From: an uncultured Solirubrobacterales bacterium
GTDB taxonomy: Bacteria > Actinomycetota > Thermoleophilia > Solirubrobacterales > Solirubrobacteraceae
NCBI GenBank assembly: GCA_963849285.1
Contig: CAWKGS010000004.1
Location: forward strand, 180,800 to 244,799
Length of the DNA: 64,000 nucleotides
Direction of reading: 5' to 3'
Part shown: piece after piece, positions 1-21,011 of the stretch
Numbering within the stretch: position 1 is the stretch's first letter
Layout: each line of letters opens with the position of its first letter
Translations under genes and position numbers: made by a program
Notes under the pieces: generated by a model
Databases searched by the model: none
Told to the model about the DNA's origin: nothing
Seen by the model: only the letters and a program-made list of their open reading frames with translations

Positions 1-735
1 GAGTCGCCCGCCGGCGACGGCGTGATCGACCTGGTCGCGCCGAGCTCGGTCCCCCGGTGGAGAACCCGGAGAAGATCATCTGCCTCGGGCTCAACTATCG
101 AGATCACGCCGAAGAGACCGGGATGGCCATCCCATCCTCGCCGATCGTGTTCGCCAAGTTTCCCAACTCACTGGTGGGACCATGCGACGAGATCGTCCTT
201 CCCGACGCGCTTGGTGACGAGGTCGACTACGAGGCGGAGCTTGCAGTCGTGTTTGGTCGCTCGTGCCGAGACATCGAGGCCTCGGAGGCGCTCGACTACC
301 TCGCCGGGGTGATGGCCTTCAACGACGTCAGCGCCCGCGAGCATCAGATGCGAAGCAGCCAGTGGATGCTCGGAAAGGCGATCGACACCTTCGCGCCGTG
401 CGGACCGGCGCTCGTCTCGCTCGACGAGATCGACGACGTCCAGGATCTCGACGTGATCGCGCGCGTCAATGGCGAGACGCTGCAGTCAGGCAACACGGGA
501 TCGATGATCTTCGGGGTCGCCGAGACGATCGCGTTCCTCTCGCAGCTGATGACGTTCGTCCCCGGAGACGTGATCGCGACCGGAACCCCCGCTGGTGTCG
601 GAATGGGCCGCACCCCGCCGCTCACGCTGCATCCGGGGGACACGGTCGAGGTCGAGATCGGAGGCGTCGGGACGTTGCAAAACCGCGTCACGGCGCAGGC
701 CGACGCGCGGCTCCGGTCAGTGGGGAAGGGCATGA
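1..735 (+). CDS. Fumarylacetoacetate hydrolase (FAH) family protein, 5'-partial, with apparent indels near positions 38 and 700-730
   Basis: Motifs KIICLGLNYRDHAEE, VDYEAELAVV, FNDVSARE, GKAIDTFAPCGP and GDVIATGTPAGVG in ORF 57..1751. A TGA at 733-735 overlaps the next ATG (ATGA) but lies in a different frame. Confidence 0.85.
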
Positions 736-1751
736 GCCTAAAAGCCCAGGCGGAGTCTGCCGGGATCCCGGCCCCCGCCGCAGAGACGCCCGAGCGCTCG
801 CGGCGCAACCTCGCCGCCCGCCTGCGCTCCCCCGAGTTCCTGGTCGTGATCTTCCTGATCCTGCTGTGCGTCGGGATGGGGATCGCGAACTCCAACTTCG
901 CCACCGAGATCAACTTCCAGAACATAGGCCGGCAGAGCAGCGTGCTGATCGTGCTCACCGTCGGGGTCCTGTTCGTGCTCCTGGTGGGAGGGATCGATCT
1001 CTCCCTCGCCGGGTCGATCGCACTGGTCACAGTCGTCTCGGCGCACCTCGCCAACTCGATTAGCCCCGGCGAGGCATTTCTCATTGCCGTTTTGATGGCC
1101 ACGGCAGTCGGGATCATCAACGGCGTACTGATCGCGGTCTTCGGTCTCACGCCGATCGTGGTCACGCTCGCGGGGGGTCAGGTCCTCTTGGGGATCGCCC
1201 TGTTGCTCACCCCCAACGGGCCGATCCAGCCCGCAAACCCGGATTACCTGAGCCTCGCCGCTTCCAGCGCCGGACCGGTGCCGACGATCTTCATCGCGGC
1301 GCTGGTCGCCCTCGGCGTGGGCTGGGTGATCCTCAAGCGCTTCAGCCTCGGGCGATATATCTACGCCGTCGGAGGAAACGAGACCGCCGCGTGGCTAGCC
1401 GGCGTGCCGACTAAGCGAGTCAAGCTGACCTCCTACGCGCTGGCCGGGATGTTCGCGGGGGTGGCGGGGATCCTGCTCTCCTCGCGCGTGGGCTCGGGGG
1501 ATCCCTCGCTCGGGCAGGCCGAGATGCTCGAGGCGTATGCCGCCGCATTCATCGGTGGCGTTGGCTTTGCGACCGGCCGCGGCACCGTCTTCGGCGTCGG
1601 AGTCGGGGCCCTGACGCTCGGCGTGATTGCGAACGGGATCGATCTGCTCAGCCTCAACACCGACTGGGAGTACATCGTCAGCGGCCTTTTGATCGTCGGC
1701 GCGATCGCCTTCCAGAAGGGCGCGGGCAACATGCGCTGGAGGCGCAGGTGA
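732..1751 (+). CDS. Sugar-type (CUT2, RbsC-like) ABC transporter permease
   Basis: Motifs GGIDLS, GRYIYAVGGNETAAWLAGV and AAFIGG, plus many TM segments. ATG at 732 follows a purine-rich GGGAAGGG. Confidence 0.9.
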   Translation: MSLKAQAESAGIPAPAAETPERSRRNLAARLRSPEFLVVIFLILLCVGMGIANSNFATEINFQNIGRQSSVLIVLTVGVLFVLLVGGIDLSLAGSIALVTVVSAHLANSISPGEAFLIAVLMATAVGIINGVLIAVFGLTPIVVTLAGGQVLLGIALLLTPNGPIQPANPDYLSLAASSAGPVPTIFIAALVALGVGWVILKRFSLGRYIYAVGGNETAAWLAGVPTKRVKLTSYALAGMFAGVAGILLSSRVGSGDPSLGQAEMLEAYAAAFIGGVGFATGRGTVFGVGVGALTLGVIANGIDLLSLNTDWEYIVSGLLIVGAIAFQKGAGNMRWRRR

Positions 1752-3419
1752 ACGGCCAAGAGCTCGACCGGACACCGACCTCCGTCGCTGAAGCCCCGGT
1801 TCGGCGGAGATCGAGGGCCTCGAGATCGAGAAGAGCTTTGACAGCGTGCGGGCGCTGCGCGGAGTCACGTTCGCGGTCGGCAGGGGCGAGGCGCTCGGCC
1901 TGGTCGGCGAGAACGGCGCGGGGAAGTCGACGCTGATCAACATCTTCACGGGCGCCCTGCAGCCGGACAGCGGCACTGTCCTCCTGAAGGTGAGCCGACC
2001 GTGCTGAAGAACCCGCGCGTCGCGCTCGGCCTCGGTATTGCCACGGTCCATCAGCAGAACCGCGTGGTGCCATCCATGTCGGTGATGGAGAACCTCGAGC
2101 TTGGTGACGAGCCAACTCGAACGCCGTTGCGATGGCTCTCGCGCACGGCACGCCCCGACGCTGTGGACGCGCTCGAGTTCGTGGGGATGGCAGATCGGGC
2201 CTCGGCGACGGTCGGTTCGCTCTCGCTCGCCGACCGGCAGCTCGTCTCGATCGCCCGCGCCGTCTCACGCGGCAGCCGCCTCCTGGTCTTCGACGAGCCC
2301 ACCGCGGCGCTCTCGCCGCTCGAGGCCAGATACCTGTTCGGAGTCGTCGAGCGGCTCCGCGCCGCGGGAACCGCGCTGCTGTACGTAACCCATCGCCTGC
2401 AGGAATTGCCGGAGGTCGTCGATCGAGTGATGGTCATGCGCGACGGCCGGGTCGTCGCCACTCGTGCCACCGACGTGAGCGAGCGTGAGCTCGTGGAGCT
2501 GATGGCTGGAGCGGAGACGATCGAGCACGACAAGGAGTTGGTCACCGAGCGACGGCAGGTGACAGCCCACCAGCGTCAGGATGAGTCCGCGCTGCTGAGC
2601 GTCTCCCGCCTCAGTGACCGTGAGGGGAGCTTCGAGGACATCACCTTTGACGTGCGGAGCGGTGAGATTCTCGGAATTCTCGGGCTCCCGGACTCGGGGG
2701 CGATCCAGGTCGCGCAGGCCATCGCCGGCGCCAGGCGCTATGCCCGGGGCGCGATCCGGATCAACGGATCGGATGTCCGCTATTCCTCACCGCGCGGCGC
2801 CATTCGCGTCGGCGTCGGGTATCTCGCGGGCGATCGAGCCCAGAAGGGAGTGCTCCCGAACTTCTCGGTGCGCGACACGATCACGCTGTCGGCGCTGCCG
2901 CGGACCAGCCGCGGGGGTCTGCTGCGGTTCGGGACAGAGAGCGAGTTGACCAGAGGACTGGTCGCCGACTGCCAGGTGCGCGCCGCTAGCACCGCCCTGC
3001 CGATGACTGCTCTGAGCGGTGGCAATCAGCAGAAGGCCCTGTTTGCTCGGCTGCTCGGCGCCGATCCGCGCCTGATCGTCTGCGAGGACGCGACCTCGGG
3101 CGTCGATGTGGCGGGCCGCGAGTCCATCTACGACCTGATCACGACGTGGTGCGAGCGCGGTAACGGCGCGCTTTGGCAAACGAGCGACCTGCGGGAGCTC
3201 GCCACGATCTGTGACCGGGTGCTCGTCCTGCGTGAAGGAACGCTGGTGAGGACCCTGACCAAGAACGAGCTGAGCGTTGATCGCCTGATGGCGGCCCAGT
3301 TCGCACAGCCGGGCTCTGGCAAAGGCGCGAATCCTGCGCCGTCGCCCGCCTCGCCGGCCCACGTCGAGGCATCGGGCACAGAAGCATCGCGAAAAGCGAA
3401 ATCGAGAGGAGAGAAGTAA
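1748..3419 (+). CDS. Sugar-type ABC ATP-binding protein (RbsA-like, two ATPase domains), interrupted by two frameshifts near 1800 and 1988
   Basis: Walker A GENGAGKST lies in the frame running ~1807-2006. The rest (VFDEPT, LSGGNQQK) is in ORF 2001..3419. Confidence 0.85.
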
Positions 3420-3422
3420 CTC

Positions 3423-4577
3423 ATGCCCACCCTTGCCGGTCGCGGACGTCACGCGATCATCATCACCTCGGCGCTTTTTGCGTCGCTGGCGGTCGGAGCC
3501 TGCGGAAGCAGCTCCTCATCCAGCAGCACCACGAGCAGCACCAGCACGCCGGCGGCCACGAGCTCAGCATCGACGTCGGCGCCCGCGACGGCGGCTGCAT
3601 TTCCGGACTACACCAAACTCGGGCCGCCCAACTTCACGCCTCCAAAGACGCAGAAGACAGTCGCCGTCCTATTCCCCGCCGAGGAGATCCCGGCCCAGAA
3701 GAGCGCCTTAATCGGCTTCGAGCAGGCAGCTGCGAAGGACAACGTCAAGCTCACGGTGTTCAACGCCGGCGGATTCGGCGATGTCACTCAGCAGGTCGCG
3801 CAGCTGGAGACCGCCATCGGGGAACACCCCGACGCGATCATCGTTGTCCCGACGTCGCCGACTGGTCTAAACGCAGGCATCGCCGGGGCGACCAGCAAGG
3901 GAATCCTCGTCACCGCTGCCCTGATCCCGCCCAGCTCTCCGGATATCAAGTTCTCGACCGTGGACCCGCTCCCGATCGACGGCGCGACAGCGGCGATCGG
4001 TCTGGCCAAGGCAATCGGTGGCAAGGGCGACATCTACGGCATTTTCGGCGGCGAGGGAGGCGCACCGAACACGCTGTTCGTCCAGGGCGCGCTGGCTGCG
4101 CTGAAGAGGTATCCGAACATCCACCTCGTCTACCGACAGGACTTCGTCAGCTACAGCCCCTCCGAATCTCTGAGCGCGGTCGAGAACGGCCTCACAGGGC
4201 ACCCGAACGTCGCGGGCATCCTGACCAACGACACCGGCCTGGCCGAAGGTGCATACCGGGCCCTGGCCGCCCACGGCAAGTCGACAGTCCCGGTGGTTGG
4301 CCTCGGGCCGAGCACAGCGACAGACATCAATTACCTCAAGGAGGGGAAGGTCGCGGTGGCCGACAGTCCTCCGTTCTACGCCGACTCGACGCTGAGCCTG
4401 GAGTGGACGCTCGCGATCCTCGCCGGTCAGAAGCCGCCCAAGTCGAAGCTGCTTGTGCTGCCGCCCACGGTCATCACAAAGGGCAACATCGATCAGGCCA
4501 TCTCCAGCGGGGCGCTCTTCCAGCTGCTTGCCCCGTCGACGATCGGTTGCGGCCCCGGCCAAGCGAAACAATGCTGA
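3423..4577 (+). CDS. ABC substrate-binding lipoprotein, periplasmic binding protein type 1 (RbsB-like)
   Basis: Lipobox AVGAC, a Ser/Thr-rich linker and PDAIIVVP; position within the ABC operon. Confidence 0.85.
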   Translation: MPTLAGRGRHAIIITSALFASLAVGACGSSSSSSSTTSSTSTPAATSSASTSAPATAAAFPDYTKLGPPNFTPPKTQKTVAVLFPAEEIPAQKSALIGFEQAAAKDNVKLTVFNAGGFGDVTQQVAQLETAIGEHPDAIIVVPTSPTGLNAGIAGATSKGILVTAALIPPSSPDIKFSTVDPLPIDGATAAIGLAKAIGGKGDIYGIFGGEGGAPNTLFVQGALAALKRYPNIHLVYRQDFVSYSPSESLSAVENGLTGHPNVAGILTNDTGLAEGAYRALAAHGKSTVPVVGLGPSTATDINYLKEGKVAVADSPPFYADSTLSLEWTLAILAGQKPPKSKLLVLPPTVITKGNIDQAISSGALFQLLAPSTIGCGPGQAKQC

Positions 4578-4687
4578 CCCGAACATCGCGTCGTAACAGT
4601 CGATAGCGCAGGGCGGGGTGCTTGACGGCCCGAGCGCCCCGCCAACGCATCCCGACCCTCGTAGACCCATCAGACAGGAATGAGATC

Positions 4688-5740
4688 GTGCCCCCAGTCA
4701 TCAACGTCCACACGCATTACCAGCCAGGGTCGGTGCTGCCGATCATCGAGCCCTACGGGATCGAGATGGTCACAGCGCCGGACGGCAGCTGGCACTTTCG
4801 CTCGGGCGACGTCGAATACAACATCCCGGGAACCCCCGACAAGTTCTGGGGCAGCGGCCTTGGCGGCCAGATCCCGGAGATGGACGCCGCCGGCATCGAC
4901 ATCAACGTCCTACAGCCGAGCCCGATGATCTTCAGCTATCACCTCGACCCGGAGGTGAATCAGGAGTTCTCGCGGGCCTTCAACAACGAGACGGCGAAGC
5001 ACATCGCCGAGCACCCCACCCGCTTCTGGGGCTCCGCGCAGCTACCGATGCAGGATCTGGAGATGGCGGCGGCCGAGCTCGAGCGCTCGATCAACGAACT
5101 CGGTCTGAAATCGTGCTCGGTCGGTTTCATCCTCGGCCCCGACAAGACGCTCGCCGACCCCGAGTGTGACGAGTTCCTCTCTACGGTCGAGCGGCTCGAC
5201 GTACCACTCCTGCTGCATCCGGTCGCGCTGGGCCAGGACATGGACGTCGTCGCGGGTCGCGCGAGCTGGCTGCTCAAGTACCAGATGGACTGGGCGTGGG
5301 GGTACCTGTTTACAGAGACCGTCGCGGTCGTCGGCTTCATCTTCAGCGGCGCGCTTGACCGCCACCCCGACCTGCGGGTCATGATTCCCCACGGCGGCGG
5401 GATGATCCCCTACCAGCTCGGGCGCATGGAATATCAGGCGAAGGTGTTCGGCGCCGGTCACCGCGGCGCGGGCGAGCAGCTGCAGCGGCCTCCGGTGGAG
5501 TACCTCGGGCGCTTCTACTTCGACACGGTCGTCCACGAGCCGCGCTCGCTGGAGCTCCTGATCGACGTGATGGGCGAGGACAACGTCGTGCTTGGCTCCA
5601 ATTACCCCGGATGGGACAACGCGCCGATCTGGGAGACGATCCGGGCACTGCCCAATCTCAGCGATCGAGCCAAAGAGAAGATCCTCGGAGAGAACGCGGC
5701 TGACCGCCTGTTCCGGGTCGACGTCCCCGTGCCCGCCTAG
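4688..5740 (+). CDS. Amidohydrolase-2 family protein (ACMSD-like decarboxylase/hydratase)
   Basis: Motifs NVHTH, LLLHP, IPHGGG, YFDT and LGSNYP. Confidence 0.85.
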   Translation: MPPVINVHTHYQPGSVLPIIEPYGIEMVTAPDGSWHFRSGDVEYNIPGTPDKFWGSGLGGQIPEMDAAGIDINVLQPSPMIFSYHLDPEVNQEFSRAFNNETAKHIAEHPTRFWGSAQLPMQDLEMAAAELERSINELGLKSCSVGFILGPDKTLADPECDEFLSTVERLDVPLLLHPVALGQDMDVVAGRASWLLKYQMDWAWGYLFTETVAVVGFIFSGALDRHPDLRVMIPHGGGMIPYQLGRMEYQAKVFGAGHRGAGEQLQRPPVEYLGRFYFDTVVHEPRSLELLIDVMGEDNVVLGSNYPGWDNAPIWETIRALPNLSDRAKEKILGENAADRLFRVDVPVPA

Positions 5741-5745
5741 AGCTG

Positions 5746-6051
5746 ATGCGCTATCTCGTATCCATCGCTCCAGAGACCCAGGCCAACAACGAGATCGATC
5801 GCTCCGGCGAGGTCATGCCCCTGCTGAATTGGCTCAAGGACACGTTCAAGCCGGAGGCCTTCTATCTGGAGGCCGCGCAGCGCAAGATCTGGATGGTCGC
5901 CGAGTTCGAGACGGCGGGAGATCTGAACAAGCTGACGTGCATCGGGATCTTCAAGTTCGGTGCCTATCCCGAGTTCCGGCCGCTGTTCACCGAGGATGAG
6001 AACACGACCGCGATCCCGGCCTCTCTGGCGCTGATGGAGTCGATCTCGTGA
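5746..6051 (+). CDS. Small alpha/beta protein, GYD/DUF3303-like (tentative)
   Basis: 101-aa ORF coupled to both neighbours; KPEAFY and PEFRP pattern. Confidence 0.5.
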   Translation: MRYLVSIAPETQANNEIDRSGEVMPLLNWLKDTFKPEAFYLEAAQRKIWMVAEFETAGDLNKLTCIGIFKFGAYPEFRPLFTEDENTTAIPASLALMESIS

Positions 6052-7058
6052 AGCTCGGTCGTGTCCTTGCGAGCAGTGCCGAGGATCAGGAACCGCGGAT
6101 TGTCGTCCTCGGCGAGGGCGGTGCCGCGAACGACGTCCGCACCGCCGAGCGGCTGCGCCTGCAGCGCACGGGGATGGGGCGAGCCGCCGCGGCCCGGCTC
6201 GCCGCCGCGGTCGTGCCGGGCAGCATGACGGCCGCGCTCGAGGCCGGATCCGTATTCGTCGAGGCCGCGTCGCAGGCCGCGGCCGATACGAGCGGGGACT
6301 CAGCGTTGGGCGGGGAGCTGGAGTTGATCGCTCCGCTTGACCCGCCCTCGTTCCGTGACTTCATGGCCTTCGCCGAGCACTTCGAGACGGCAAACCGGAA
6401 GGCCGGCCGCGAACCTCCGGCCGTGCTCTACGAGCTGCCCGTGTCCTACCTGGGCAACCACCACGCGATCATCGGGCCCGAGCAGGAGATGCCCTGGCCG
6501 GCCTATAGCCGCCAAATGGACTACGAGCTCGAGATCGGGATCGTGATCGGCAAGCCCGGCCAGAATCTCACGCCCGAGCAGGCGATGGGTCACGTCTTCG
6601 GCTTCACCATCCTCAACGACTTCAGCGCTCGCGATATCCAGCTGCGTGAGATGGCGGGCGGACTGGGGCCGTCCAAGGGCAAGCACTTCGCTTCGGCGGT
6701 GGGACCGTGGATAACGACCGCCGACAGCCTCGACGCCGGGCACCTCGAGATGAGCGCACGGGTCAACGGAGAGACGTGGTCGCACGCCTCGAGCGACTCG
6801 ATCACGTGGACGATCCCGGAACTGGTCGCGTGGGCATCGGCTGGAGAGCAGCTTGTAACCGGGGCGCTGCTCGGGACCGGAACCGTGGGCGGAGGTTGCG
6901 GCCACGAGCTCGGGCGGCAGCTCGAGCCCGGCGACATCGTCGAGCTGGAGATAGAGGGGATCGGCGTCCTTCGCAACAGGCTCGGTTCGCCGCCGCCGAT
7001 GGCATGGACGCCCACCGCCAAGCAACGACCCGAGATCCCGACATCAGCGAGGGCCTGA
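6048..7058 (+). CDS. Second FAH-family hydrolase
   Basis: Motifs MDYELEIG, LNDFSARD, KGKHF and GTGTVGGG. Confidence 0.9.
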   Translation: MKLGRVLASSAEDQEPRIVVLGEGGAANDVRTAERLRLQRTGMGRAAAARLAAAVVPGSMTAALEAGSVFVEAASQAAADTSGDSALGGELELIAPLDPPSFRDFMAFAEHFETANRKAGREPPAVLYELPVSYLGNHHAIIGPEQEMPWPAYSRQMDYELEIGIVIGKPGQNLTPEQAMGHVFGFTILNDFSARDIQLREMAGGLGPSKGKHFASAVGPWITTADSLDAGHLEMSARVNGETWSHASSDSITWTIPELVAWASAGEQLVTGALLGTGTVGGGCGHELGRQLEPGDIVELEIEGIGVLRNRLGSPPPMAWTPTAKQRPEIPTSARA

Positions 7059-7991
7059 ATGCGCAAGCACCTGATCTCGCAACTCGGCCACGTCGAGCTG
7101 ATGACACCGAGAGTCGAAGAGAGCGCCGCGTTCTTTCACGACGTCCTCGGTCTCGAGGTGTCGGCGCGTGCGGGGCAGTCGATCTACATGAGGTGCTGGG
7201 GCGAGTTTCACCATCACAGTCTGAAGCTCACCGAGGGCCCGCAGAGCGAGCGTCCCGAGCTCGGTCACTTCGCGTATCGGGCGGAGGGCCCTGAGGAGCT
7301 GCAGGCCCTGGTCGAGGTAATAGAGGGCACGGGACTCGGGATCGGGTGGAGCGACGGGGACGTCGGGCACGGTCCGGCGTATCGCTTCCGGAGCCCCGAC
7401 GATCACCCGGTCGAGGTCTTCTGGGAGGTCGAGCGATGGCAGGCGCCTAGCGGCCAGAGGGGCCCGGTTCACAGCCGCCCGCAGAAGTACCCAACACGGG
7501 GCGCCGCGGCTCGCCGCCTTGACCACATCAACATCACCTGCAAGACGGTCACTCCGGTGCGCGAGTTCTTCTGCAACGACCTCGGTCTGACCCACTCGGA
7601 GATGGCTCGCATCGACGGGACCCTCGAGGAGCTCATCTCCCTCGCCCCCTCGAACAACATCAACCACGACCTCTCGATCACCAAGCACTTCACCGGTTTG
7701 AGCGGCGGGGTCAGCCACACGGCGTTCTGGTACGACACCCCCGACGAGATCATGCGACTCGCCGACATCTGCCGTGACTACGACGTGCCGATGGAATGGG
7801 GACCCGCTCGACACCTCGGGAGCGAGCTCTTCTTCCTCTACATCCGCGAGCCCGGGGGACATCGGATCGAGCTCTGCACCGGGGGTTATCTCGTGTTGGC
7901 CCCGGACTGGAAGACGGTCGAATACCTGGCATCCGAGAACCAGGCGGTCTACTGGACCGGAGAGCTTCCGGAATCAATGTACGGCGACTGA
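7059..7991 (+). CDS. Extradiol ring-cleavage dioxygenase (catechol 2,3-dioxygenase-like, VOC superfamily)
   Basis: Residues equivalent to the XylE Fe ligands and active site: RLDH, NHD, SHTAF, RH, LY and RIEL. Confidence 0.9.
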   Translation: MRKHLISQLGHVELMTPRVEESAAFFHDVLGLEVSARAGQSIYMRCWGEFHHHSLKLTEGPQSERPELGHFAYRAEGPEELQALVEVIEGTGLGIGWSDGDVGHGPAYRFRSPDDHPVEVFWEVERWQAPSGQRGPVHSRPQKYPTRGAAARRLDHINITCKTVTPVREFFCNDLGLTHSEMARIDGTLEELISLAPSNNINHDLSITKHFTGLSGGVSHTAFWYDTPDEIMRLADICRDYDVPMEWGPARHLGSELFFLYIREPGGHRIELCTGGYLVLAPDWKTVEYLASENQAVYWTGELPESMYGD

Positions 7992-8003
7992 AGGAGAACG
8001 ACG

Positions 8004-8414
8004 ATGGCGGTAATCCGAGCTGGTGATCGGCAGGTCGTGTGGCGGGCGGGCGAGAGCGAGGCTCACGAGCTCAGGCCCGGTCGCTTCGGCGAGCTGATGC
8101 TCGGCGACCACATCTCGGTGGTCAAGTGGACCTTTCCTCCCGGCACCCCGCAGGGAAAGCTCCACTCGCACTCAGACCACGAGCAGTGGACGTACATCAT
8201 CTCCGGGCGCTTCGAGGTGCAGATCGGCGACGAGGTCACGGTGCTCGGACCGGGTGATGTCTCCTACTCGCCGAAGAACGTCCTGCACGGCAACACGCTC
8301 GTCGTTGGCGATGAGCCAGTGGTCGTGCTCGACATCTTCTCGCCGCCTCGGGATGAGTTCGTCAACGCCGCGGCGGGCGGTCCACCGGTCGAGGTGCGCG
8401 GTCCCAATGACTGA
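8004..8414 (+). CDS. Cupin domain protein
   Basis: HSHSDHEQ, G-x-F-x-V-x-IG and PKNVLHG cupin motifs. Confidence 0.9.
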   Translation: MAVIRAGDRQVVWRAGESEAHELRPGRFGELMLGDHISVVKWTFPPGTPQGKLHSHSDHEQWTYIISGRFEVQIGDEVTVLGPGDVSYSPKNVLHGNTLVVGDEPVVVLDIFSPPRDEFVNAAAGGPPVEVRGPND

Positions 8415-9393
8415 CCTGTCCTCGGCGCCACTGTTCACCGAGGCCGAGCTCGCCGACCTCTGCCGAAGCGGCACCGACCGCTTCACGGAGGCGATCCAGT
8501 CAGCGACTGCGGCCGAGGCTCTCGCCACCTACGAGCAGCTCGAGGGGGCGATGCGGGGCTTCTGCACCGTCTATCTGGACTGGCTCGCGCTCACCGACGA
8601 GTACGTGTTCGAGACCCACGGCCATCAGGGTCATGCGCTCGCCTTCCGGCCGGAGCGAACCGCCGAGCTCGCCGTCCGTACCGGCATGTCGCTCGAGGAC
8701 CTCGTCGCCGCGCAGCCGCTCGTGGCTGGCCCCGATAACCCGCTGACCGCAAAGATGACCGCGGCAATCGAGGCCGGCAACCAGCCCCTCGCAGTTGACA
8801 CCTGGCACGAGGTCGAGCGGCTCCTGCGCAACGTTCACGATCTCCGCCGCGATCTGATCTCAGACCTCCTCGGGTGGATCTATCGAGAGCACGGCGCGGA
8901 GGGGCTTCAGGCGGCGCAGGAGTACTGCGCCCCGCGCGGATGGTGGCGCGAATCGATGCCGCGGGATTTCGCAATCGACCCCAAGCAGCGCCTCTCCGAG
9001 GTCGTGTTCATGCTCACAGTCGGCGCCTTCTCCGAGCAGCGGGTCACCGAGGAGGACGACCGCTGGGTGGTCCACCAGATCGTCTGCGGCAACTGCGGTC
9101 GCCAGGTCCGTGACCGCTACCACGACTCCTCCTGGGGGCTCGAGACGGTCACAGAACAGGGGCCGCTGACGTTCGGGCAGCCCGCGTTGACGATCTACCA
9201 GACGCACCTCGCCGTGATCCACCACATGTACGCGATCGACATCGTCGGCGCGCCGTGGCCGTCGTTTGACTGCGCCGGGCTCGCCGCCGGCGAGCGCCCC
9301 TGTCGCCTGATCGTCTACAAGGACCCATCGCGCACGGCCGCCGAGTTCTACGAGATCGTCGGCAGGACGGCGCCCACTGGCGCCCGCGGGTAA
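8407..9393 (+). CDS. Uncharacterised Cys/His-rich protein, paralogue 1
   Basis: ATG overlaps the cupin 3' end. Motifs HDLRRDLISD, CGNCG, HLAVIHH and CRLIVYKDP are shared with the next gene. Confidence 0.8.
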   Translation: MTDLSSAPLFTEAELADLCRSGTDRFTEAIQSATAAEALATYEQLEGAMRGFCTVYLDWLALTDEYVFETHGHQGHALAFRPERTAELAVRTGMSLEDLVAAQPLVAGPDNPLTAKMTAAIEAGNQPLAVDTWHEVERLLRNVHDLRRDLISDLLGWIYREHGAEGLQAAQEYCAPRGWWRESMPRDFAIDPKQRLSEVVFMLTVGAFSEQRVTEEDDRWVVHQIVCGNCGRQVRDRYHDSSWGLETVTEQGPLTFGQPALTIYQTHLAVIHHMYAIDIVGAPWPSFDCAGLAAGERPCRLIVYKDPSRTAAEFYEIVGRTAPTGARG

Positions 9394-9399
9394 CGGAGG

Positions 9400-11380
<1,981 letters not shown>

Positions 11381-11394
<14 letters not shown>

Positions 11395-12762
11395 TCGCTC
11401 GCTATCGGTTCCCTCGCCAGGGCGTCTGCTCGTCGTCGGAGCCGGATACATGGGGGCGCAGATCACGCTGCAGGCGGCGTCGTGCGGTTGGGCGGTCTCG
11501 GCCGTTGACCCCGATTCTGCGGCGCTGGCGCGCGTTCAGGCAAATCACGATCAGCTCGTGCGCGCCGAACTACGCTCAGCCCCCGAGGAGCAGCCAGGGA
11601 GCGTGCGGTGCGCGACGGAGCTGGAGCCGGTCGCGGGTGGGGTCGACATCGCTATCGAGGCGGTCTCCGAGCGGCTGGAGGTAAAGCGCGAGGTCTTTGC
11701 CGCGCTCGACCGGCTCACGCCCCCGGACGCGCTGCTGGCGACCAACAGCTCCGTAATCAGGATCGGCGCGATCGAGGACGTGGCGTCCCACCCCCAGAGA
11801 CTGCTCAACATGCACTTTTCCCGCCCGTCGCAAAGCGGCCTCTGGTCGAGTTGATGCGTGGCACGCATACCTCGAGCGATGCGCTGGAGCGCGCCCGGAG
11901 CTTTGCAACGAGCATCGGCATGACGCCGGTGTTGGTGCGACGCCCCAGCACCGACTTTCTGTTCAACCGTGTCTGGCGGGCGATCAAGAAGGAGTGCCTA
12001 CGCGTCGTCGAGGAGCGCGTCGGCACGCCCGAGGACCTCGACCGCGCGTGGATGATCATCTACGGCACTGACGAGAGGCCATTTGGAGGCATGGACTCGA
12101 TTGGCCTCGACGTGGTGCTGGAGATCGAGCGGGTCTACCACGCCGAGTCGGGCCTCGACGCGGATCGCCCGCCGCAGTTCCTGATCGACATGGTCGCCCA
12201 GGGGCGGCTCGGCGTGAAGTCGGGAGCCGGCTTCTACAGCTACCCGGACCCCGCATTCCCCTCCGCTGGCTTTATCAACCGACCCATTGCGGTGAGCCCG
12301 GTTAGGAGTCAGACGCCCCGTGAGTCGCTGATCGGTACCTGGCGGCTGGCCTCCTTTGACCACTTCGGCGCCGACGGCGAGCTGCTGGCGCACCTCTATG
12401 GCGAGGAGCCGCGCGGCTACATGACCTACACGGATGCCGGTCGCTTCCATCTCAACGTGATGCGGACCGACCGCGAGCGCTTCCGCGGCCGGATCCCAAA
12501 GGACGGGAGCGTGCAGGAGCAGGCCGCGGCCTTCTCGAGCTCGCTGTCCTACGCCGGCACATGGGACATCACCGCGGCCGCCGGCGCTCCGGTGATGACA
12601 CACCGAGTCGAGATCAGCTCGTTTCCGAACTGGTCGGGAGCCGAGCTGCGGCGCACGCTGCGAGTCAGCGCGCGGGAGCTGGTCATCACTGCGACCGGCG
12701 GGCTGCCACCGGGTCAGAAGGTCGTGGTCACCTGGGAGCGTGAGGACGGCGGCCGTGGCTAG
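11381..12762 (+). CDS. 3-hydroxyacyl-CoA dehydrogenase fused to a C-terminal lipocalin-like domain, frameshifted near 11820
   Basis: VVGAGYMG, IEAVSE, ATNSS, HFF, FNR and GRLGVKSGAGFYSY, followed by LIGTWRL, SYAGTW and HRVEISSFPNW (Lipocalin_5-type). Confidence 0.8.
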
Positions 12763-13903
12763 AGGCCATGGCCGGCGCGTCCTCGTCATCGGGGGCGGCA
12801 TCGCCGGGTCGACCCTGACGGTGGCATTGCACCAGCGCGGCATCGATGTCGAGCTCGCCGAGGTTCAGGACGAGTGGAAACCTGTCGGGGCCGGTCTGAC
12901 GTTGATGGGCCCAGCGCTGAGGGCGCTGAAAACGATCGATCTCATCGACGCCGCGGTCGGAGCGGGAGCGAGTCTCTACCGCTTCGCGGTCGGAAACGAG
13001 CGCACCGAGGTGACTTCGATGAGCGAGCTGCCGCGGCTGAACGGGCCGGACTATCCCCCGATCGTCCAACTGAGCCGTCCGGCGTTTCACGGACTGCTCG
13101 CCGACGCGGTGCGAGCGGCCGGCGTGCCGGTGACGCTCGGCGTGACGGCAGAGTCGGTCGAGCACGCAGATGGCCGCGTCGATGTCACGCTCACCAATGG
13201 TGAAAGTCGGACATACGACCTCGTCGTCGGCGCGGACGGCGCGCACTCACTCGTTCGGGCCCTGACCTTCCCGGAGATCGGAAAACCTCGCCTGACCGGG
13301 CAGGCCGTGTGGCGCGCAATGATCGATCGACCATCCGGGCTCGGTTCGACCTTCGCGGACGGCAACCTGTACATGTTCTATGGCCCGCGCAACAAGACGC
13401 TCGCGATTCCCACCTCCGAGCACCAGATCTACATCGCCCTGGTGGAGAATTTCGATGACCCCGTCCGGCCAGAAGCGGATCGACTACCGGAGCTGCTCCG
13501 TGATCAGTTGGTCGACTACAGCGGCTTTCTCGCGGTGTTGCGGGAGCGGATCACCAGCCCCTCCCAGGTCCTCTGGCGGGCACTCGAGGTGCTGTTCGTT
13601 CCCTCGCCGTGGTATCGCGGAAATGTCGTCCTGATCGGAGACGCGGCCCACACCACGACCGCGCATCTAGCAAGCGGAGCTGGGATCGCGATCGAGGACG
13701 CGATCGTGCTCGCCGAGGAGCTGGCGGCGGAGGGGCCCGTGCAGGGCGCACTCGATCGATTCATGCGCCGTCGCTACGAACGCTGCCGGATGGTGGTCGA
13801 GAACTCCATCCAGCTTGGAGAGTGGGAGCAGAGGCCCACCGCTGACGCCGATCCGGTGGCACTGACCAACGAGAGCTGGAAGCAGCTCGCCGAGCCGATC
13901 TAA
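12755..13903 (+). CDS. Class A FAD-dependent aromatic monooxygenase (UbiH/salicylate hydroxylase superfamily)
   Basis: Motifs IGGGIAG, VGADGAHS and VLIGDAAH...GAGIAIED. Confidence 0.9.
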   Translation: MARGHGRRVLVIGGGIAGSTLTVALHQRGIDVELAEVQDEWKPVGAGLTLMGPALRALKTIDLIDAAVGAGASLYRFAVGNERTEVTSMSELPRLNGPDYPPIVQLSRPAFHGLLADAVRAAGVPVTLGVTAESVEHADGRVDVTLTNGESRTYDLVVGADGAHSLVRALTFPEIGKPRLTGQAVWRAMIDRPSGLGSTFADGNLYMFYGPRNKTLAIPTSEHQIYIALVENFDDPVRPEADRLPELLRDQLVDYSGFLAVLRERITSPSQVLWRALEVLFVPSPWYRGNVVLIGDAAHTTTAHLASGAGIAIEDAIVLAEELAAEGPVQGALDRFMRRRYERCRMVVENSIQLGEWEQRPTADADPVALTNESWKQLAEPI

Positions 13904-15487: not shown

Positions 15488-15748
15488 ATGTCGATCCATG
15501 TGCTGACACTTGCCGCCACCCTCAGCAACGACGGGCTCAAGTCCCTGGCGATCGGCGTCGCCGGTGGCCTCGGCGCGATCGGCGCCGGCGTCGGGATCGG
15601 ACCGATCTTCGCCAAGTCGATGGAGTGCATCACCCGTCAGCCGGAGATGCGTGAGGAGATCACGAGCATCCAGTGGCTCGGGTTCGCCCTCACCGAGGCG
15701 TGCTTCTTCTACGGGCTCGTGGCCGGTCTGATCGCATACGTGCTCTGA
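15488..15748 (+). CDS. atpE: F0F1 ATP synthase subunit c, stand-alone copy
   Basis: GxGxxGxGxGxG helix, RQPE loop and LTEA carboxylate helix; 86 aa. Confidence 0.9.
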   Translation: MSIHVLTLAATLSNDGLKSLAIGVAGGLGAIGAGVGIGPIFAKSMECITRQPEMREEITSIQWLGFALTEACFFYGLVAGLIAYVL

Positions 15749-16734: not shown

Positions 16735-16747
16735 GAGGCGGGCGGCC

Positions 16748-17275
16748 TCACCAGAGATCCCCTTCCCGCCAGTCGCAGGTCAGCTCGCCGTCGAGATCCA
16801 GCGCCGCGCTGACCGGGAGCACGTAGATCGAGCCGTCGTCCTCCTCGGTGCGGACGATCCCCTCCGGTGTCAGGCCGAAGATCGGGCCGCGCCAGAGCCT
16901 CCAGCCGCATGCCTCGTAGAGCGCCGCGCCGTCGTCGGTCGCTCCGAGGGCGCCAAGCTCGTATGCGCCGCGAATGACCGGCTCGAGCGCGCGCAGCAAC
17001 GTCGCCCCATGGCCGCGCCTGCGATGCGCGGCATCCACAGCGACCCCCTCGACGTAGCCCGTGCGGAGCGCTCGACCGGCGTGCATGATCCGGCGCTGCA
17101 CGAGCGAGGCGTGGCCGATCAGCTCGCCTCCCTCCCAAACGAGGGCGTGCATGCCGCCGAGGGTGTGCTCGTAGGCGAGCTCTGTCATCTCCTCGCCGAA
17201 GACCCGATCGAGCAGGGCGCGGATCGCCCGCGGCACCTCGGATCCGAGCGCAGCGGTGTGAACCAGCTGAAGCAC
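16748..17275 (-). CDS. aac(2')-I: Aminoglycoside 2'-N-acetyltransferase-like GNAT
   Basis: EHTLGGMHAL, GYVEGVAV, RGAYELGAL and C-terminal CDWREGDLW recall mycobacterial AAC(2')-Ic. Confidence 0.85.
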   Translation of the reverse strand: MLQLVHTAALGSEVPRAIRALLDRVFGEEMTELAYEHTLGGMHALVWEGGELIGHASLVQRRIMHAGRALRTGYVEGVAVDAAHRRRGHGATLLRALEPVIRGAYELGALGATDDGAALYEACGWRLWRGPIFGLTPEGIVRTEEDDGSIYVLPVSAALDLDGELTCDWREGDLW

Positions 17276-17330
17276 GCCGAAATCCTCCCATCGGGTCGCC
17301 GCGAGCGTATTCTCTGACAGAGGTCAGAGG

Positions 17331-18257
17331 ATGCCGGAAAGCGACGCGATGATCACGCAGGTCCGCCGGTTCAACCGGACCGTGACACAGCGCGCCGGCG
17401 CGCTGGGCGACCGGTTCCTCGATCTGCCACGGCCGCTGGTCGCGTCCCGGGTCCTGTGGGAGATCGGGACCGAGGGCTGCGAGGTGCGCACGCTGCGTTC
17501 GCGATTGGCGCTGGACTCCGCACAGCTCAGCCGCCTGTTGCGAGGGCTCGAAGCACAGCGGCTGATCAACCTTGAACCGAGCCCGCTGGACCGCCGGATC
17601 CGCGTGGCTCGTCTGACCGCGGCGGGCTTCCAGGAGCGCGAGGAGCTCGACCGGCGAAGCGACGAGCTGGCGGGGTCGATCCTGGAGCCGCTGGGCGAAG
17701 CCGAGCGCGGGCAGCTGGTCGCGGCGATGCGCACCGTTGAGCGGCTGATCACCGCCTCTCTGATCCAGATCCGCGTCGTGGACCCCGCGGGCGCCGACGC
17801 ACGCCGGTGCCTGCGCGCCTACTTCGCCGAGCTGAACCGCCGCTCGAGCAGGGGCTACGACCCTTCCCGGGGCATCTCAGCGGAGCCGCACGAGATGCGC
17901 GAGCCGGCCGGGGCTTTCCTCGTGGCCTACCTGCGCGACGAGCCGATCGGCTGTGGCGGCGTCAAGCACCATCCCGGCGAGCCCACCGAGATCAAACGGA
18001 TGTGGGTCGCGGAGTCCGCGCGCGGGCTCGGCCTGGGGCGGAGGCTACTCACCGAGCTCGAGGAGCTGGCTCGAGCAGCGGGAGCCCCGGCCGCTCACAT
18101 CGAGACGAGCGACGTGCTGCACGAGGCGATCTCGTTGTACCTGTCATCCGGCTATCGAGAGGTCCCGCCGTTCAACGACGAGCCGTTCGCCAATCACTGG
18201 TTCGAGAAGCCGCTGCGCTCCTCCGATGACAGGTCCTCGGGCAGCGGAACGTCCTGA
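17331..18257 (+). CDS. MarR-family HTH fused to a GNAT acetyltransferase
   Basis: VRRFNR...wHTH N-terminus; EIKRMWV...RGLGLGRRLL C-terminus. Confidence 0.85.
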   Translation: MPESDAMITQVRRFNRTVTQRAGALGDRFLDLPRPLVASRVLWEIGTEGCEVRTLRSRLALDSAQLSRLLRGLEAQRLINLEPSPLDRRIRVARLTAAGFQEREELDRRSDELAGSILEPLGEAERGQLVAAMRTVERLITASLIQIRVVDPAGADARRCLRAYFAELNRRSSRGYDPSRGISAEPHEMREPAGAFLVAYLRDEPIGCGGVKHHPGEPTEIKRMWVAESARGLGLGRRLLTELEELARAAGAPAAHIETSDVLHEAISLYLSSGYREVPPFNDEPFANHWFEKPLRSSDDRSSGSGTS

Positions 18258-18637
18258 GGTGACGCGCCCGCCTCCTGATCCCACGATGTGAACGCCTCGC
18301 CGTCGCGCCCCTGGTGCTCCCCGCTGGCGCCGAGCGCGATCAGCACCAGGCGCTCCTCACCCGCGTTGACCAGCTGGCGTCGAGCGCGCGGCGCGACCCG
18401 GATCAGCTCGCCCTCGTCAAGCTGGACGGCCTCGCCCTCGACCAGCAGCGTCAGCCGTCCACGGATCACGAGGTAGACCTCCTCCTGATGGCGATGGCGG
18501 TGGATCCGGCCGCGCTGCCCGGGCTCCAGCACGATCTGGTTGACCCCGAACGAGGACACGCCGAGCTGCCGGCGCAGCGGCAGGAAGCGCTCGCCGCAAT
18601 CGGGATCCAGCCTGGTGCGGGCGGTGCCCTCCTCCAT
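18194..18637 (-). CDS. Cupin domain protein
   Basis: HRHRHQEEVYLVIRG motif. Confidence 0.8.
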   Translation of the reverse strand: MEEGTARTRLDPDCGERFLPLRRQLGVSSFGVNQIVLEPGQRGRIHRHRHQEEVYLVIRGRLTLLVEGEAVQLDEGELIRVAPRARRQLVNAGEERLVLIALGASGEHQGRDGEAFTSWDQEAGASPQDVPLPEDLSSEERSGFSNQ

Positions 18638-18679
18638 CGCGCAATAGTCTCCCAGGTCCCCGGGGGCGCGTCGCCTCCT

Positions 18680-20858
18680 CTATGCCCGAGCGGGCTCGTG
18701 CGTCAGGCGCGGAAGCCGATGCAGCGGCCGCGGCAGATACCAGTTCGCCTCGCCGAGCAGCTTCATCGTCGCCGGCAGCAGCACCGCCCGCACGATCGTG
18801 GCGTCGAGCAGGATCGCGACGGCGAGGCCGACGCCCATCTGCTTGAACTCGAGCGCGCCGAGGGAGCCGAAGATCGCGAAGACCGCGACCATCACGATCG
18901 CCGCGCTGGTCACCGGCCCGGCGGTCGACTTGATCCCGTAGGCGACCGCGTCCGCCGTGCTCATGCCGCGGTCGTGACCCTCGCGGATCCGGCTGATGAT
19001 GAACACGTGGTAGTCCATCGATAGCCCGAACAGGATCACGAACAGGAACAGGGGGAGCCAGGCGGCGATCGCGCCGGTCGAGGTGAAGCCGAGCAGCGGT
19101 TGCGCCCAGGTGTGCTGGAACACCAGCACCAGCACTCCGTAGGCCGCGCCCACCGACAGCAGGTTCAGGACGATCGCGGTGATTGCCATCACCATCGAGC
19201 GGAACGTGACCAGCAGCAGCAGGAACGCCATACTGAGCACGAACGCGAGCACGATCGGGGCATGGGCCCTCATCGAGTTGTTGAAGTCCAGCGCGCCCGG
19301 CGGTCGGCCCCGTGACGAACACGGTCACCCCCGGGAGGTGTCCGAGCGTGGCCGGGATCAGCTGCCCCCGAAGCACCGTCAGCGCGGCGTTGGAGGCCGG
19401 GTCCGTGCCGGTACCGGAGAGCGGCATCGAGACCGCCGCGACGTTTCGCTGGGAGTTGACCATCAGCTCGAACGGCTGGTGAATCCGGCCGCTCGCGAGC
19501 GCTCGGCGCTCGAGCGCGGCGATCGCGTTGCGGACCGGCGGCGCGGTCACGTTCGGCGCCTGGATCACTACCGTCGCGGGCTGCGCCCCGCCCGGGAAGG
19601 CGGCCTCGATCCGCTTGATCGTCTTGACGATCGGCAATCCCTGCGGGAGGCCCTGGAGCCCCGGCTGCGCGGTGTGCAGCCCGGCGGCGGGGACGAGCAA
19701 CGCGACGAGCAGGCCGCCGGCGACCAGGACCGACGCGACCGGCCGCGCCAGCACCCGGTCCACGACCGCGCCCCAGATCCGTGGCTCGCCGCCGCGCTCG
19801 CGCCGGCGGGCGAGGAACGGAACCCGGCCGCGCATGACCCGGTCGCCCAGCTTCGAGAGCAGTGCGGGCAGCACCGTCAGCGATCCGAGCACGGCGACCG
19901 CGACGACCAGAATCGTGCCGGTCGCCATCGAGGCGAACGTCTTGTTGCCGGCGAGATACATCCCCGCCATCGCGGTGATCACCGTCAGGCCCGAGACGAG
20001 CACGGAGCGGCCCGAGGTCGCCGCGGCCGCGGCCAGCGCGGCCTGCTCGTCACGACCGGCGGCTCGCTCCTCGCGCTCGCGCCGCATGTAGAACAGCGAG
20101 TAGTCGACGCCGACGGCCATGCCGATCAGCAGCACGGTCTCCGAGACGACCGGGTCCACGGGGAACAGCTGGCTGATCAGCGCGACGATCCCGAGCGTCG
20201 CCCCGACGCCGGTGATCGCCAGCAGCACGGGGATCCCGGCGGCGACGAGCGCACCGAACGCCAGTACGAGAATCGTGAGCGTGATCGGCAGCGACAGCGT
20301 CCGGGACTTGGCGAAGTCGTCGTTGAAGCTCTGGCTCAGCGCCTGATCGGCGCTTGCGTCGCCGGCCTGCGCGATCTCCAGCTGGGGATGGTCGCGCTGG
20401 GTTGCCGCGCTCGCCGTCAGGGACGCACCGACGCGATCACTCGCGGTGTTCGCGTTCCCCGTGATCTCGAAGCCCACTAGGACGGCGTGCCCGCCACGCG
20501 CGATCTCGCCCGCGTTCCCGCCCTGGAGCGGGGAGCGCACGTTGCGCACCGAGCGCAATCCGCTCAATCGCCCCACGAGGTCGTCGACCGCCGACCGGAA
20601 GGCTGGGTCGCGGACCGTCAGCGTCGCGCTCTGGATCAGCACCTGCTCGTTCGCGTGAGGCGGGAGCCGCGCGTGGAGGATCCGATCGGCGCGCCCCGAG
20701 TCGCCGACGCCGGTGTCCTGCGAGGGGATGTGCCTGGTCCCCACGGCGCCGCCGATGAGCACGGCGAGCAGCACGAAGACCAACCAGCCGATGATCGCTG
20801 TCCGGCGGTGTGCCGCGCTCCATCGACCTGCGCGCGCCGCCACGTTGCCTCTGTGCAC
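18680..20858 (-). CDS. MMPL/RND family transporter, frameshifted near 19295
   Basis: AVGVDYSLF...REE, SGRSVLVSG, GLSMDYHVF and LLDATIVR; RBS GGAGG before GTG 20858. Confidence 0.9.
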
Positions 20859-21011
20859 CTCGTCCTCCAATCGGTCGTTTTCCGAGCGAAGGCAGCGTCT
20901 CAGCGCACCACCGCGCCGACCATGCGGCGGCCTGGCGTTCATGCAGCGGCGTGCACCCGAGCGCTGTCGGGTTATCCCCAGGTCGCGCAGCGAGTATCTT
21001 CCAGCGCGCGA

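Follow-up and report, generated by a model that had tools for sequence, protein, structure and literature searches.

We analysed a stretch of 64,000 nucleotides from an uncultured Solirubrobacterales bacterium (contig CAWKGS010000004.1, positions 180,800 to 244,799; hereafter the window). At its start, between positions 1 and 13903, an earlier sequence-only reading had seen a self-contained catabolic island for a hydroxylated aromatic or heterocyclic substrate. This segment was confirmed to be a real, conserved operon of 14 genes, all on the + strand and with families confirmed by Pfam. Orientation and families had been read correctly. The count of 13 genes was one too low, the 101-aa gene having been overlooked, and the importer, which had been listed first, is preceded by a gene of the fumarylacetoacetate hydrolase (FAH) family, FAH1, whose start lies outside the window. 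The features of the operon are as follows.

1..733 in the window, with the gene start at window -194, + strand: FAH1 (Pfam FAA_hydrolase, 4e-71)
732..1751, + strand: CUT2-type ABC permease (Pfam BPD_transp_2, 1e-34)
1748..3419, + strand: CUT2-type double ABC ATPase, disrupted at ~1798 and ~1988 by one-base deletions
3423..4577, + strand: CUT2 lipoprotein solute-binding protein (Pfam Peripla_BP_4, 2e-37)
4612..4643, + strand: GC-rich hairpin (13-bp stem) in the operon's one long gap between genes
4688..5740, + strand: ACMSD-like amidohydrolase-2 (Pfam Amidohydro_2, 5e-37)
5746..6051, + strand: 101-aa ferredoxin-like protein (no Pfam or NCBIfam match; AlphaFold2 model)
6048..7058, + strand: FAH2 (Pfam FAA_hydrolase, 3e-55)
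7059..7991, + strand: Fe(II) type I extradiol dioxygenase, two-domain VOC (two Glyoxalase stretches; TIGR03211, 243 bits)
8004..8414, + strand: metal-binding monocupin of 136 aa (Pfam Cupin_2, 3e-17)
8407..9393, + strand: ParA, first Cys/His-rich paralogue, 53% identical to ParB
9400..10362, + strand: ParB, second paralogue (no Pfam, NCBIfam or PDB match)
10359..11394, + strand: AKR13-type aldo-keto reductase (AKR), as two half-genes each matching Aldo_ket_red
11381..12762, + strand: protein of the 3-hydroxyacyl-CoA-dehydrogenase family (HACD) fused to Lipocalin_5 (Pfam 3HCDH_N, 3HCDH, Lipocalin_5)
12755..13903, + strand: group A flavin monooxygenase, FAD_binding_3 (NF005313, 390 bits)

The genes are joined by overlaps of 4 to 14 bases (ATGA/GTGA) or by gaps of at most 12 bases, except for one gap of 110 bases, which bears out the translational coupling noticed before. 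The ATG of the permease gene overlaps the FAH1 stop codon (ATGA) when an extra G at 730 is discounted, and the equivalent overlap in a related contig, L014, is GTGA. Only the C-terminal two thirds of FAH1 lie inside the window, whose edge cuts the operon. The 110-base gap follows the binding-protein gene and holds the 13-bp GC hairpin (folding energy -44.4 kcal/mol, z = -2.9). A hairpin with different stem letters is found at the same position in L014 and in another relative, L024, and it may act as an intra-operon stabiliser of the messenger or as an attenuator.

The same gene order was met again on four further metagenome contigs or metagenome-assembled genomes (MAGs; L003/L030, L014, L024/L029 and L027), and three more carry variants of the operon. 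The arrangement is therefore not a chance product, and the co-occurrence of these genes, on which the sequence-only reading depended, is indeed seen elsewhere. L014 is labelled Solirubrobacteraceae, and among named relatives of the operon a Solirubrobacteraceae MAG comes nearest. In L024 the monooxygenase gene lies between those of the dioxygenase and the cupin, and HACD is absent; in L027 the HACD-lipocalin gene is an intact 464-aa fusion; L015 carries the ATPase, the 101-aa protein, the cupin, ParA, ParB and the AKR. A divergent cluster, L026, encodes an alpha/beta hydrolase, the amidohydrolase, permease, ATPase and binding protein, a 516-aa monooxygenase, the dioxygenase, Par, the cupin, an aldehyde dehydrogenase and a cyclase. 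Even in this cluster, which has no AKR, FAH or 101-aa genes, the importer genes are still accompanied by those of the amidohydrolase, monooxygenase, dioxygenase, Par and cupin. The constant core consists of the CUT2 importer, amidohydrolase, dioxygenase, Par and cupin, usually with the flavin monooxygenase too.

Close orthologues of ParB or of the dioxygenase were found in 0 of 40 same-genus genomes, and no homologue of the amidohydrolase at E <=1e-60 was found in 400 genomes of the class. A plasmid collection held no Par relative, amidohydrolases of at most 33% identity, and dioxygenases of at most 43% identity, set among generic meta-cleavage genes of Thermus and Rhizobium. A distribution as patchy as this speaks for an accessory locus.

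A promoter-like site, TTGACA-18-TACAGT, lies before FAH1 at window -283..-254 and is kept in L003 and L014. It is preceded by a GntR/FCD regulator gene, and promoter and upstream GntR gene are conserved in three lineages. Directly upstream is a second module, with a second GntR gene and genes for a small flavin monooxygenase, an amidohydrolase-2, an extradiol dioxygenase, an FAH protein, a cyclase, a BKACE protein, a 562-aa flavin monooxygenase and an alpha/beta hydrolase. Beyond it come a cupin, another monooxygenase and another dioxygenase, and a tRNA-Ile(GAT) gene at window -14027..-13954 bounds this upstream catabolic cluster. The upstream module is linked to the operon in three lineages (69-86% amino-acid identity in L029, 93-99% in L030). 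The operon is therefore not self-contained, contrary to what had been proposed; it begins outside the window, where its regulator and promoter lie, and is one half of a conserved two-module catabolic locus beside the tRNA-Ile gene. The origin region with dnaA, yidC and parAB was also noticed, some ~15-24 kb upstream of the window start.

On the right, the similarity to L003 (97% identity at the nucleotide level) is lost precisely at 13903, where the monooxygenase gene has its stop codon. The genes that follow the operon in L003, a DDE transposase gene included, have no counterpart in this genome. When same-genus genomes were compared at the borders, orthologues of the flanking 2-hydroxyacid dehydrogenase were found, and the neighbourhood was not conserved in G028, G008 and G036. 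No integrase was noticed among the open reading frame (ORF) translations of the 29-kb locus, and the transposase adjoins the L003 copy only. The operon has a GC content of 0.670, against a genome mean of 0.700 +/- 0.016 (4.5th percentile), with a normal GC content at third codon positions (GC3). This composition lends weak support to an island in the sense of horizontal transfer: the low GC speaks for it, the GC3 does not.

The assembly comprises 4.32 Mb in 9 contigs, with ~70% GC, and is 91.5% complete. Six one-base indels, recognised against the L003 and L014 sequences, disrupt four genes of this copy of the operon, by breaking them or by fusing them.

FAH1, ~39: one-base frameshift
FAH1/permease, 730: extra G in a G run, which removes the ATGA stop/start overlap and fuses both genes
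ATPase, ~1798 and ~1988: two one-base deletions, GGG being read as GG at ~1988
AKR, ~10857: one-base frameshift
HACD, ~11816: TTTTT read as TTTT

The Walker A segment of the ATPase lies in another frame. L003, a 97%-identical metagenome contig, has indels of its own at other places, while the frames broken in the window are whole in it, ~1988 excepted. These indels are most likely errors of long-read assembly, because in the short-read MAG contig L014 every gene carried whole (FAH1 to ParB) is one intact ORF; the AKR gene is there cut by the contig end. The alternative is that the frameshifts are real and that this genome holds a decaying, non-functional operon. The number of lesions (six in four genes, with further ones in the upstream module) and the presence of the ~1988 shift in L003 as well would fit such a decay. 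We consider it markedly improbable: window and L003 carry private indels at different places, each being intact where the other is broken, the clearest indels fall in short homopolymers (730, ~1988, ~11816), and genes outside the locus seem shifted too. Moreover, no premature stops or large deletions were seen, GC3 is normal, and 91.5% completeness in only 9 contigs fits an unpolished long-read MAG. Among the outside genes, an MMPL-type gene at 18417..21365 (- strand) looks split by one-base frameshifts, as do the two flavin monooxygenase, cyclase, dioxygenase and amidohydrolase genes of the upstream module. The apparent indel rate in the region is roughly one per 2-3 kb; with indels this frequent, gene calls made elsewhere in this genome should be read just as cautiously.

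Catalytic residues of type I extradiol dioxygenases have been defined for AphC (PMC9062432), and all six are kept in the ring-cleaving enzyme of the operon: the 2-His-1-carboxylate triad H156, H220 and E271, and the second-sphere residues H203, H252 and Y261, in a protein with two VOC domains. Their spacings (47, 17, 32, 9, 10) compare with 45, 17, 32, 9, 10 in AphC, and the PDB matches are 9wgj (5e-70) and AphC (3e-54). The protein scores 243.4 bits with TIGR03211, the catechol 2,3-dioxygenase equivalog, whose cut-off is 320.2 bits. It would work like a catechol 2,3-dioxygenase but cannot be filed as its equivalog.

The amidohydrolase matches ACMSD (1.5e-39), LigW (6e-26) and LigY (4e-14) in the PDB, with gamma-resorcylate decarboxylase and LigJ between the last two, and has no NCBIfam match. 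Its HTH, LLLHP, PHGGG and QLGR residues align with ACMSD, so that the Amidohydro_2 fold comes with the HxH motif, third His, catalytic His and substrate-binding Arg of ACMSD-type decarboxylases. However, it reads INVHTH and GSNYPGWD where ACMSD types have IDxHxH and GSDYPF. GSN[YF]P was found in 61 of the 75 homologues of at least 51% identity, most of the other 14 being shortened or fused products. In relatives below ~40% identity it was found in 0 of 13, five of which have the canonical Asp motif. The protein belongs to a distinct, uncharacterised subfamily with Asn for two canonical Asp, and the active-site changes suggest an altered chemistry.

Intact FAH1 orthologues match L-2,4-diketo-3-deoxyrhamnonate hydrolase in the PDB (3e-52) and score 231 bits with NCBIfam NF053535, against a cut-off of 500. 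FAH1 resembles this hydrolase and HpcE, and is likely an acylpyruvate or 2,4-diketo-acid hydrolase. FAH2 matches YisK (1e-28) and OPET decarboxylase (2e-26) in the PDB and HpaG-C in NCBIfam (91 bits, below cut-off), and is a predicted isomerase, decarboxylase or hydrolase of the FAH family. The flavin monooxygenase exceeds the NF005313 cut-off (390 bits for 372), a subfamily that carries no assigned function. Its PDB matches are HpxO and MHPC oxygenase, both at ~1e-24. The cupin has the His/His/Glu and His motifs, with KdgF as best PDB match at only 6e-11. The intact 344-aa orthologue of the AKR in L003 matches perakine reductase (3e-89), and all NCBIfam matches of HACD are below their cut-offs. 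The 101-aa protein, conserved in L003, L014, L015, L024 and L027, was modelled by AlphaFold2 (pLDDT 75) with a beta-alpha-beta-beta-alpha-beta fold. The best Foldseek matches of the model are the ClcF/muconolactone-isomerase family (E 3e-3, prob 1.0, TM 0.54-0.58) and TftG, which makes the protein a weak candidate for a small isomerase or tautomerase.

ParA and ParB have no Pfam, NCBIfam or PDB match. Relatives of ParB are rare, 12 among 5.8e9 proteins, and the superfamily amounts to 330 clusters among 1.84e9 representatives. Seven residues of ParB are invariant: C218, C221, H258, H263, H264, C280 and C290. Its AlphaFold2 model (pLDDT 81) consists of a helical bundle and a small Cys/His-rich alpha/beta domain, for which Foldseek found nothing in the PDB below E 0.4. 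A Pfam scan of longer Par relatives for fused domains found none; their extra length comes from internal duplication, as would fit a joint action of ParA and ParB. Without exception, Par relatives occurred among genes of aromatic catabolism, next to a VOC protein and with a cupin close by. The most distant one (L004) has TonB-receptor, GST, NmrA and Rieske genes in its cluster, a mix that we take to recall the lignin-dimer clusters of sphingomonads. A family of 233-aa proteins distantly related to ParA/ParB (~27% identity) was also noticed, at L007 1495..2196 (-), L010 1498..2199 (-) and other same-genus loci. Its members have the motifs NPCGSGQR, YCTHC and DPCxWYWYKDP, no Pfam match, and adjoin SDR genes. 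They are present in 13 of 60 other genomes searched, 10 of these being among the 36 same-genus genomes.

The importer combines a fused double ATPase, a BPD_transp_2 permease and a Peripla_BP_4 binding protein, as CUT2 systems do, and in several lineages the operon always includes this system, which the sequence-only reading had pointed out. The ATPase orthologue of L014 is one intact ORF of 565 aa with two ABC domains, and its best NCBIfam match is AraG (379 bits, below cut-off). The binding protein has a signal peptide, a Cys lipobox and a Ser/Thr-rich linker at its N-terminus. Its best PDB matches are CUT2 binding proteins of M. smegmatis, at only 5e-20. With the NCBIfam sugar equivalogs it scores 25-40 bits, the best being the D-allose binding protein (40 bits for a cut-off of 335), and no cut-off of a CUT2 importer of known sugar (ribose, xylose, arabinose, allose, autoinducer 2) is reached. 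No link between CUT2 systems and aromatics was found in the literature.

A cultured, unstudied Streptomyces has a related cluster (L032; GCA_025568765.1, contig JANURZ010000006), in which FAH and amidohydrolase genes are adjacent, whereas three transporter genes lie between them in the operon. The Streptomyces carrier is of the MFS type, with Pfam Sugar_tr/MFS_1 matches, which we take to be like those of aromatic-acid:H+ symporters. A MAG cluster, L033, with an amidohydrolase 85% identical to ours, also uses an MFS carrier. From their sequences and gene order, the CUT2 system looks like a non-orthologous replacement of an MFS carrier. The Streptomyces core enzymes are 64-69% identical to those of the locus and travel with an MFS carrier, so the carrier type would be interchangeable, and the inference of a sugar-like substrate is thereby weakened. 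L033 also has, at 16742..19092, two MetE-like (Meth_synt_2) genes after its BKACE, cyclase and amidohydrolase genes; they may be components of a methyl transfer or an O-demethylation.

Taken together, we consider it probable, with some reserve, that this GntR/FCD-controlled operon serves the uptake and meta-cleavage of a polar phenolic compound, possibly derived from a polyphenol, as half of a two-module accessory locus. The compound would be imported by the CUT2-type system, to which the three transport genes belong by family. Preparatory steps might fall to the cupin, ParA/ParB, the 101-aa protein and the AKR, by virtue of their linkage. The group A flavin monooxygenase would add a hydroxyl, giving a ring of the catechol or hydroxyquinol type, and the AphC-like Fe(II) dioxygenase, with its catalytic residues in place, would open it. 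The ACMSD-like amidohydrolase could then decarboxylate or hydrolyse the ring-fission product or an aromatic acid, and FAH2 and FAH1 might isomerise and hydrolyse 2,4-diketo acids to pyruvate and a short acid, in place of the hydratase/aldolase route. The order monooxygenase, extradiol cleavage, decarboxylase/FAH put forward in the sequence-only reading agrees with this gene content. Finally, HACD may team up with the upstream cyclase and BKACE in the triad known from dihydrophloroglucinol degradation. Our most specific guess for the substrate is therefore a polyphenol-derived compound of the resorcinol or phloroglucinol type, an unproven guess drawn by analogy.

Several observations weigh against this scheme. 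No protein reaches an NCBIfam equivalog cut-off, and every substrate assignment is therefore by analogy. The operon has no aldehyde dehydrogenase and no meta-cleavage-product hydrolase. The amidohydrolase lacks both the canonical beta-8 Asp, metal ligand and proton donor, and the Asp before HxH, so that decarboxylase activity is uncertain. As to the triad, the BKACE protein scores 170 bits for the 430-bit cut-off of the 3,5-dioxohexanoate equivalog, the cyclase has no match to a phloroglucinol-pathway equivalog (its only NCBIfam match is arylformamidase, 47 bits), and there is no SDR-type phloroglucinol reductase. HACD is optional, being absent in L024, and the Streptomyces HACD is not orthologous to it. 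The ~1988 frameshift, being common to the two assemblies, speaks against assembly error.

Among other substrates, an aromatic that is glycosylated or polyol-like had been suggested in the sequence-only reading; the glycoside of a phenolic would be one example, quinate, a hydroaromatic, another. It would explain why a sugar-type importer is fixed in the operon in several lineages. The M. smegmatis CUT2 proteins nearest to the binding protein bind polyols, a property reportedly described in a study of threitol and erythritol. KdgF, the best match of the cupin, processes uronates, and AKR and HACD could act on a side chain or an alicyclic ring. These resemblances are weak, however (5e-20 for the binding protein, 6e-11 for the cupin), and no glycoside hydrolase and no sugar kinase is encoded in either module. 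MFS carriers serve in the Streptomyces and L033 clusters, whose FAH and amidohydrolase are 69-85% identical, and the transporter cassette sits between two genes that are neighbours in Streptomyces, as after a carrier swap. We regard such a substrate as unlikely. An N-heterocycle (a hydroxypyridine, or a compound like vitamin B6), with the flavin enzyme hydroxylating or opening the ring and AKR and HACD oxidising hydroxymethyl or formyl side chains, appears distinctly unlikely. MHPC oxygenase is indeed among the best solved relatives of the monooxygenase, which matches it no better than the urate hydroxylase HpxO. HACD matches include FHMPC dehydrogenase, at 146 bits in the operon and 195 bits in Streptomyces, when at least 500 bits would be needed for the vitamin B6 degradation pathway I. 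Pyridoxine 4-dehydrogenase is among the AKR matches, and a CUT2-type 'putative B6 ABC transporter' ATPase model of NCBIfam gives 342 bits, while the binding protein matches no B6 model. All these scores are far below the equivalog cut-offs and no better than generic family matches. PNPOx-like, HAD and alpha/beta-hydrolase genes follow the L003 copy, but the window has none of them. Known B6 routes, moreover, have no place for two FAH enzymes or for an extradiol dioxygenase of the catechol type.

We judged very improbable an oxidative, non-phosphorylative pathway for a deoxy-sugar or sugar acid, in which the small protein would be mutarotase-like, the AKR a dehydrogenase, the amidohydrolase a lactonase and the FAH protein a diketo-acid hydrolase, the VOC and flavin enzymes being passengers. 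The CUT2 importer and the best match of FAH1, L-2,4-diketo-3-deoxyrhamnonate hydrolase, would fit such a route, and the 101-aa model also resembles the rhamnose mutarotase YiiL (E 0.02). AKR and amidohydrolase-2 families also occur in L-fucose and L-rhamnose routes, where Yew and colleagues in 2006 and Watanabe and colleagues in 2008 reportedly found them. FAH1, however, stays at its 231 bits for the 500 or more that NF053535 demands, there is no enolase-superfamily dehydratase, and the amidohydrolase is ACMSD-like, none of its 44 PDB matches being a sugar lactonase. All catalytic residues of the dioxygenase are in place, and in L026 the importer travels with aromatic enzymes and without AKR, FAH and small-protein genes.

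No paper combining the gene families of the operon was found in the literature, where PRK06847 returned nothing either. With no equivalog cut-off reached and no close plasmid relatives, the earlier statement that the set fits no named pathway holds. Partial resemblances to described systems do exist. The pra pathway of Paenibacillus sp. JJ-1b (protocatechuate 2,3-cleavage), reportedly assigned to one cluster by Kasai and colleagues in 2009, is said to use the families seen here: a flavin hydroxylase, a type I extradiol dioxygenase, an ACMSD-like amidohydrolase-2 that decarboxylates the ring-fission product, and FAH-superfamily enzymes. Relative to the protocatechuate 2,3-cleavage pathway as outlined in PMC10765951, and to a classical meta lower pathway, the operon has no semialdehyde dehydrogenase or hydrolase, no hydratase, tautomerase or acetaldehyde dehydrogenase, and no aldolase; a DmpG-type aldolase (PF07836) was not detected in the 91.5%-complete assembly. 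Its FAH proteins resemble HpcE and diketo-acid hydrolases rather than XylI/XylJ, its amidohydrolase has Asn for the metal-binding and catalytic Asp, and cupin, Par, AKR and small-protein genes and an ABC importer are added.

The FAH family also includes DntG, of the lower pathway of 2,4-dinitrotoluene. In that pathway (DntB-DntD-DntG), a monooxygenase is followed by extradiol cleavage of a trihydroxy-aromatic and by an isomerase/hydrolase step that yields pyruvate (PMC10602510). By this description, the operon shares the flavin monooxygenase, the extradiol cleavage and, in the proposed scheme, the release of pyruvate without a hydratase/aldolase step. It differs by the lack of a CoA-dependent semialdehyde dehydrogenase and by the addition of an amidohydrolase-2, a second FAH and several unassigned proteins. 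The phloroglucinol cluster of Clostridium scatologenes, PGR-DPGC-TfD-TAL, contains the triad of a cyclase, an HACD-family enzyme and a BKACE protein (PMC10470551). By family, the same three are present here ('cyclase'-family hydrolase, dehydrogenase annotated as 3-hydroxyacyl-CoA dehydrogenase, BKACE), and they are contiguous in the Streptomyces cluster. In our locus, three of the four families are found across two modules, the SDR reductase being the one missing; the triad is split, with HACD in the window and cyclase and BKACE upstream; the BKACE protein is well below the model of the 3,5-dioxohexanoate enzyme; and oxygen-dependent ring-cleavage enzymes are also present.

The Streptomyces cluster shares with the locus an FAH1 orthologue (69% identity), the Asn-type amidohydrolase (69%), BKACE (64%), a flavin monooxygenase of the NF005313 type (43%), a GntR/FCD regulator, a cyclase, HACD, a second amidohydrolase and an extradiol dioxygenase. 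Besides its MFS carrier in place of CUT2, it differs in that its dioxygenase is of the BphC/HsaC type and that cupin, Par pair, AKR, 101-aa protein and FAH2 are lacking. The 5,5'-dehydrodivanillate pathway of Sphingobium sp. SYK-6 uses LigZ, LigY and LigW, LigZ being a LigB-type dioxygenase. As in our operon, amidohydrolase-superfamily enzymes there stand beside an extradiol dioxygenase, in that case for a two-ring, lignin-derived phenolic. Our dioxygenase, in contrast, is of the VOC type, the amidohydrolase matches LigW and LigY less well than ACMSD, and the operon has no O-demethylase. A lead towards the pyd genes of Rhizobium (3-hydroxy-4-pyridone dioxygenase with an ABC transporter) was dropped; the literature offered nothing of use on it. 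The annotated Rhizobium match lies with CHA-aldolase and OMA-tautomerase genes and without a transporter, in a cluster of the gallate/protocatechuate 4,5-cleavage-type lower pathway.

Ring cleavage in the operon follows an ordinary logic; what is out of the ordinary is its type of importer, its Par pair and the Asn-type subfamily of its amidohydrolase. A bolder proposal, which we hold possible and yet rather unlikely in its entirety, sees in the two modules an aerobic pathway not described before, acting on a polar compound of polyphenol origin that may have two rings. The CUT2 system would in that case be retuned to an aromatic ligand, ParA/ParB would be a heteromeric Cys/His metalloenzyme with a fold unlike solved structures, and the Asn-type ACMSD relative would have a non-canonical chemistry. 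If our main reading holds, poorly studied soil Actinobacteria would harbour an orphan route of aromatic degradation, served by a sugar-family ABC importer dedicated to it. A well-delimited amidohydrolase-2 subfamily without the canonical catalytic Asp and a rare family of two paralogues without structural relatives would come with it. The cultured Streptomyces, which has the core enzymes, offers an experimental entry point.

Two features of the window outside the operon were noted. A lone ORF at 15491..15748 (+ strand) resembles ATP-synthase subunit c (Pfam ATP-synt_C, 7.8e-12) and has no further atp gene for a neighbour. Further on, between 28001 and 32000, the GC content rises to 0.76, for a genome mean of 0.70, together with a strong positive AT skew.

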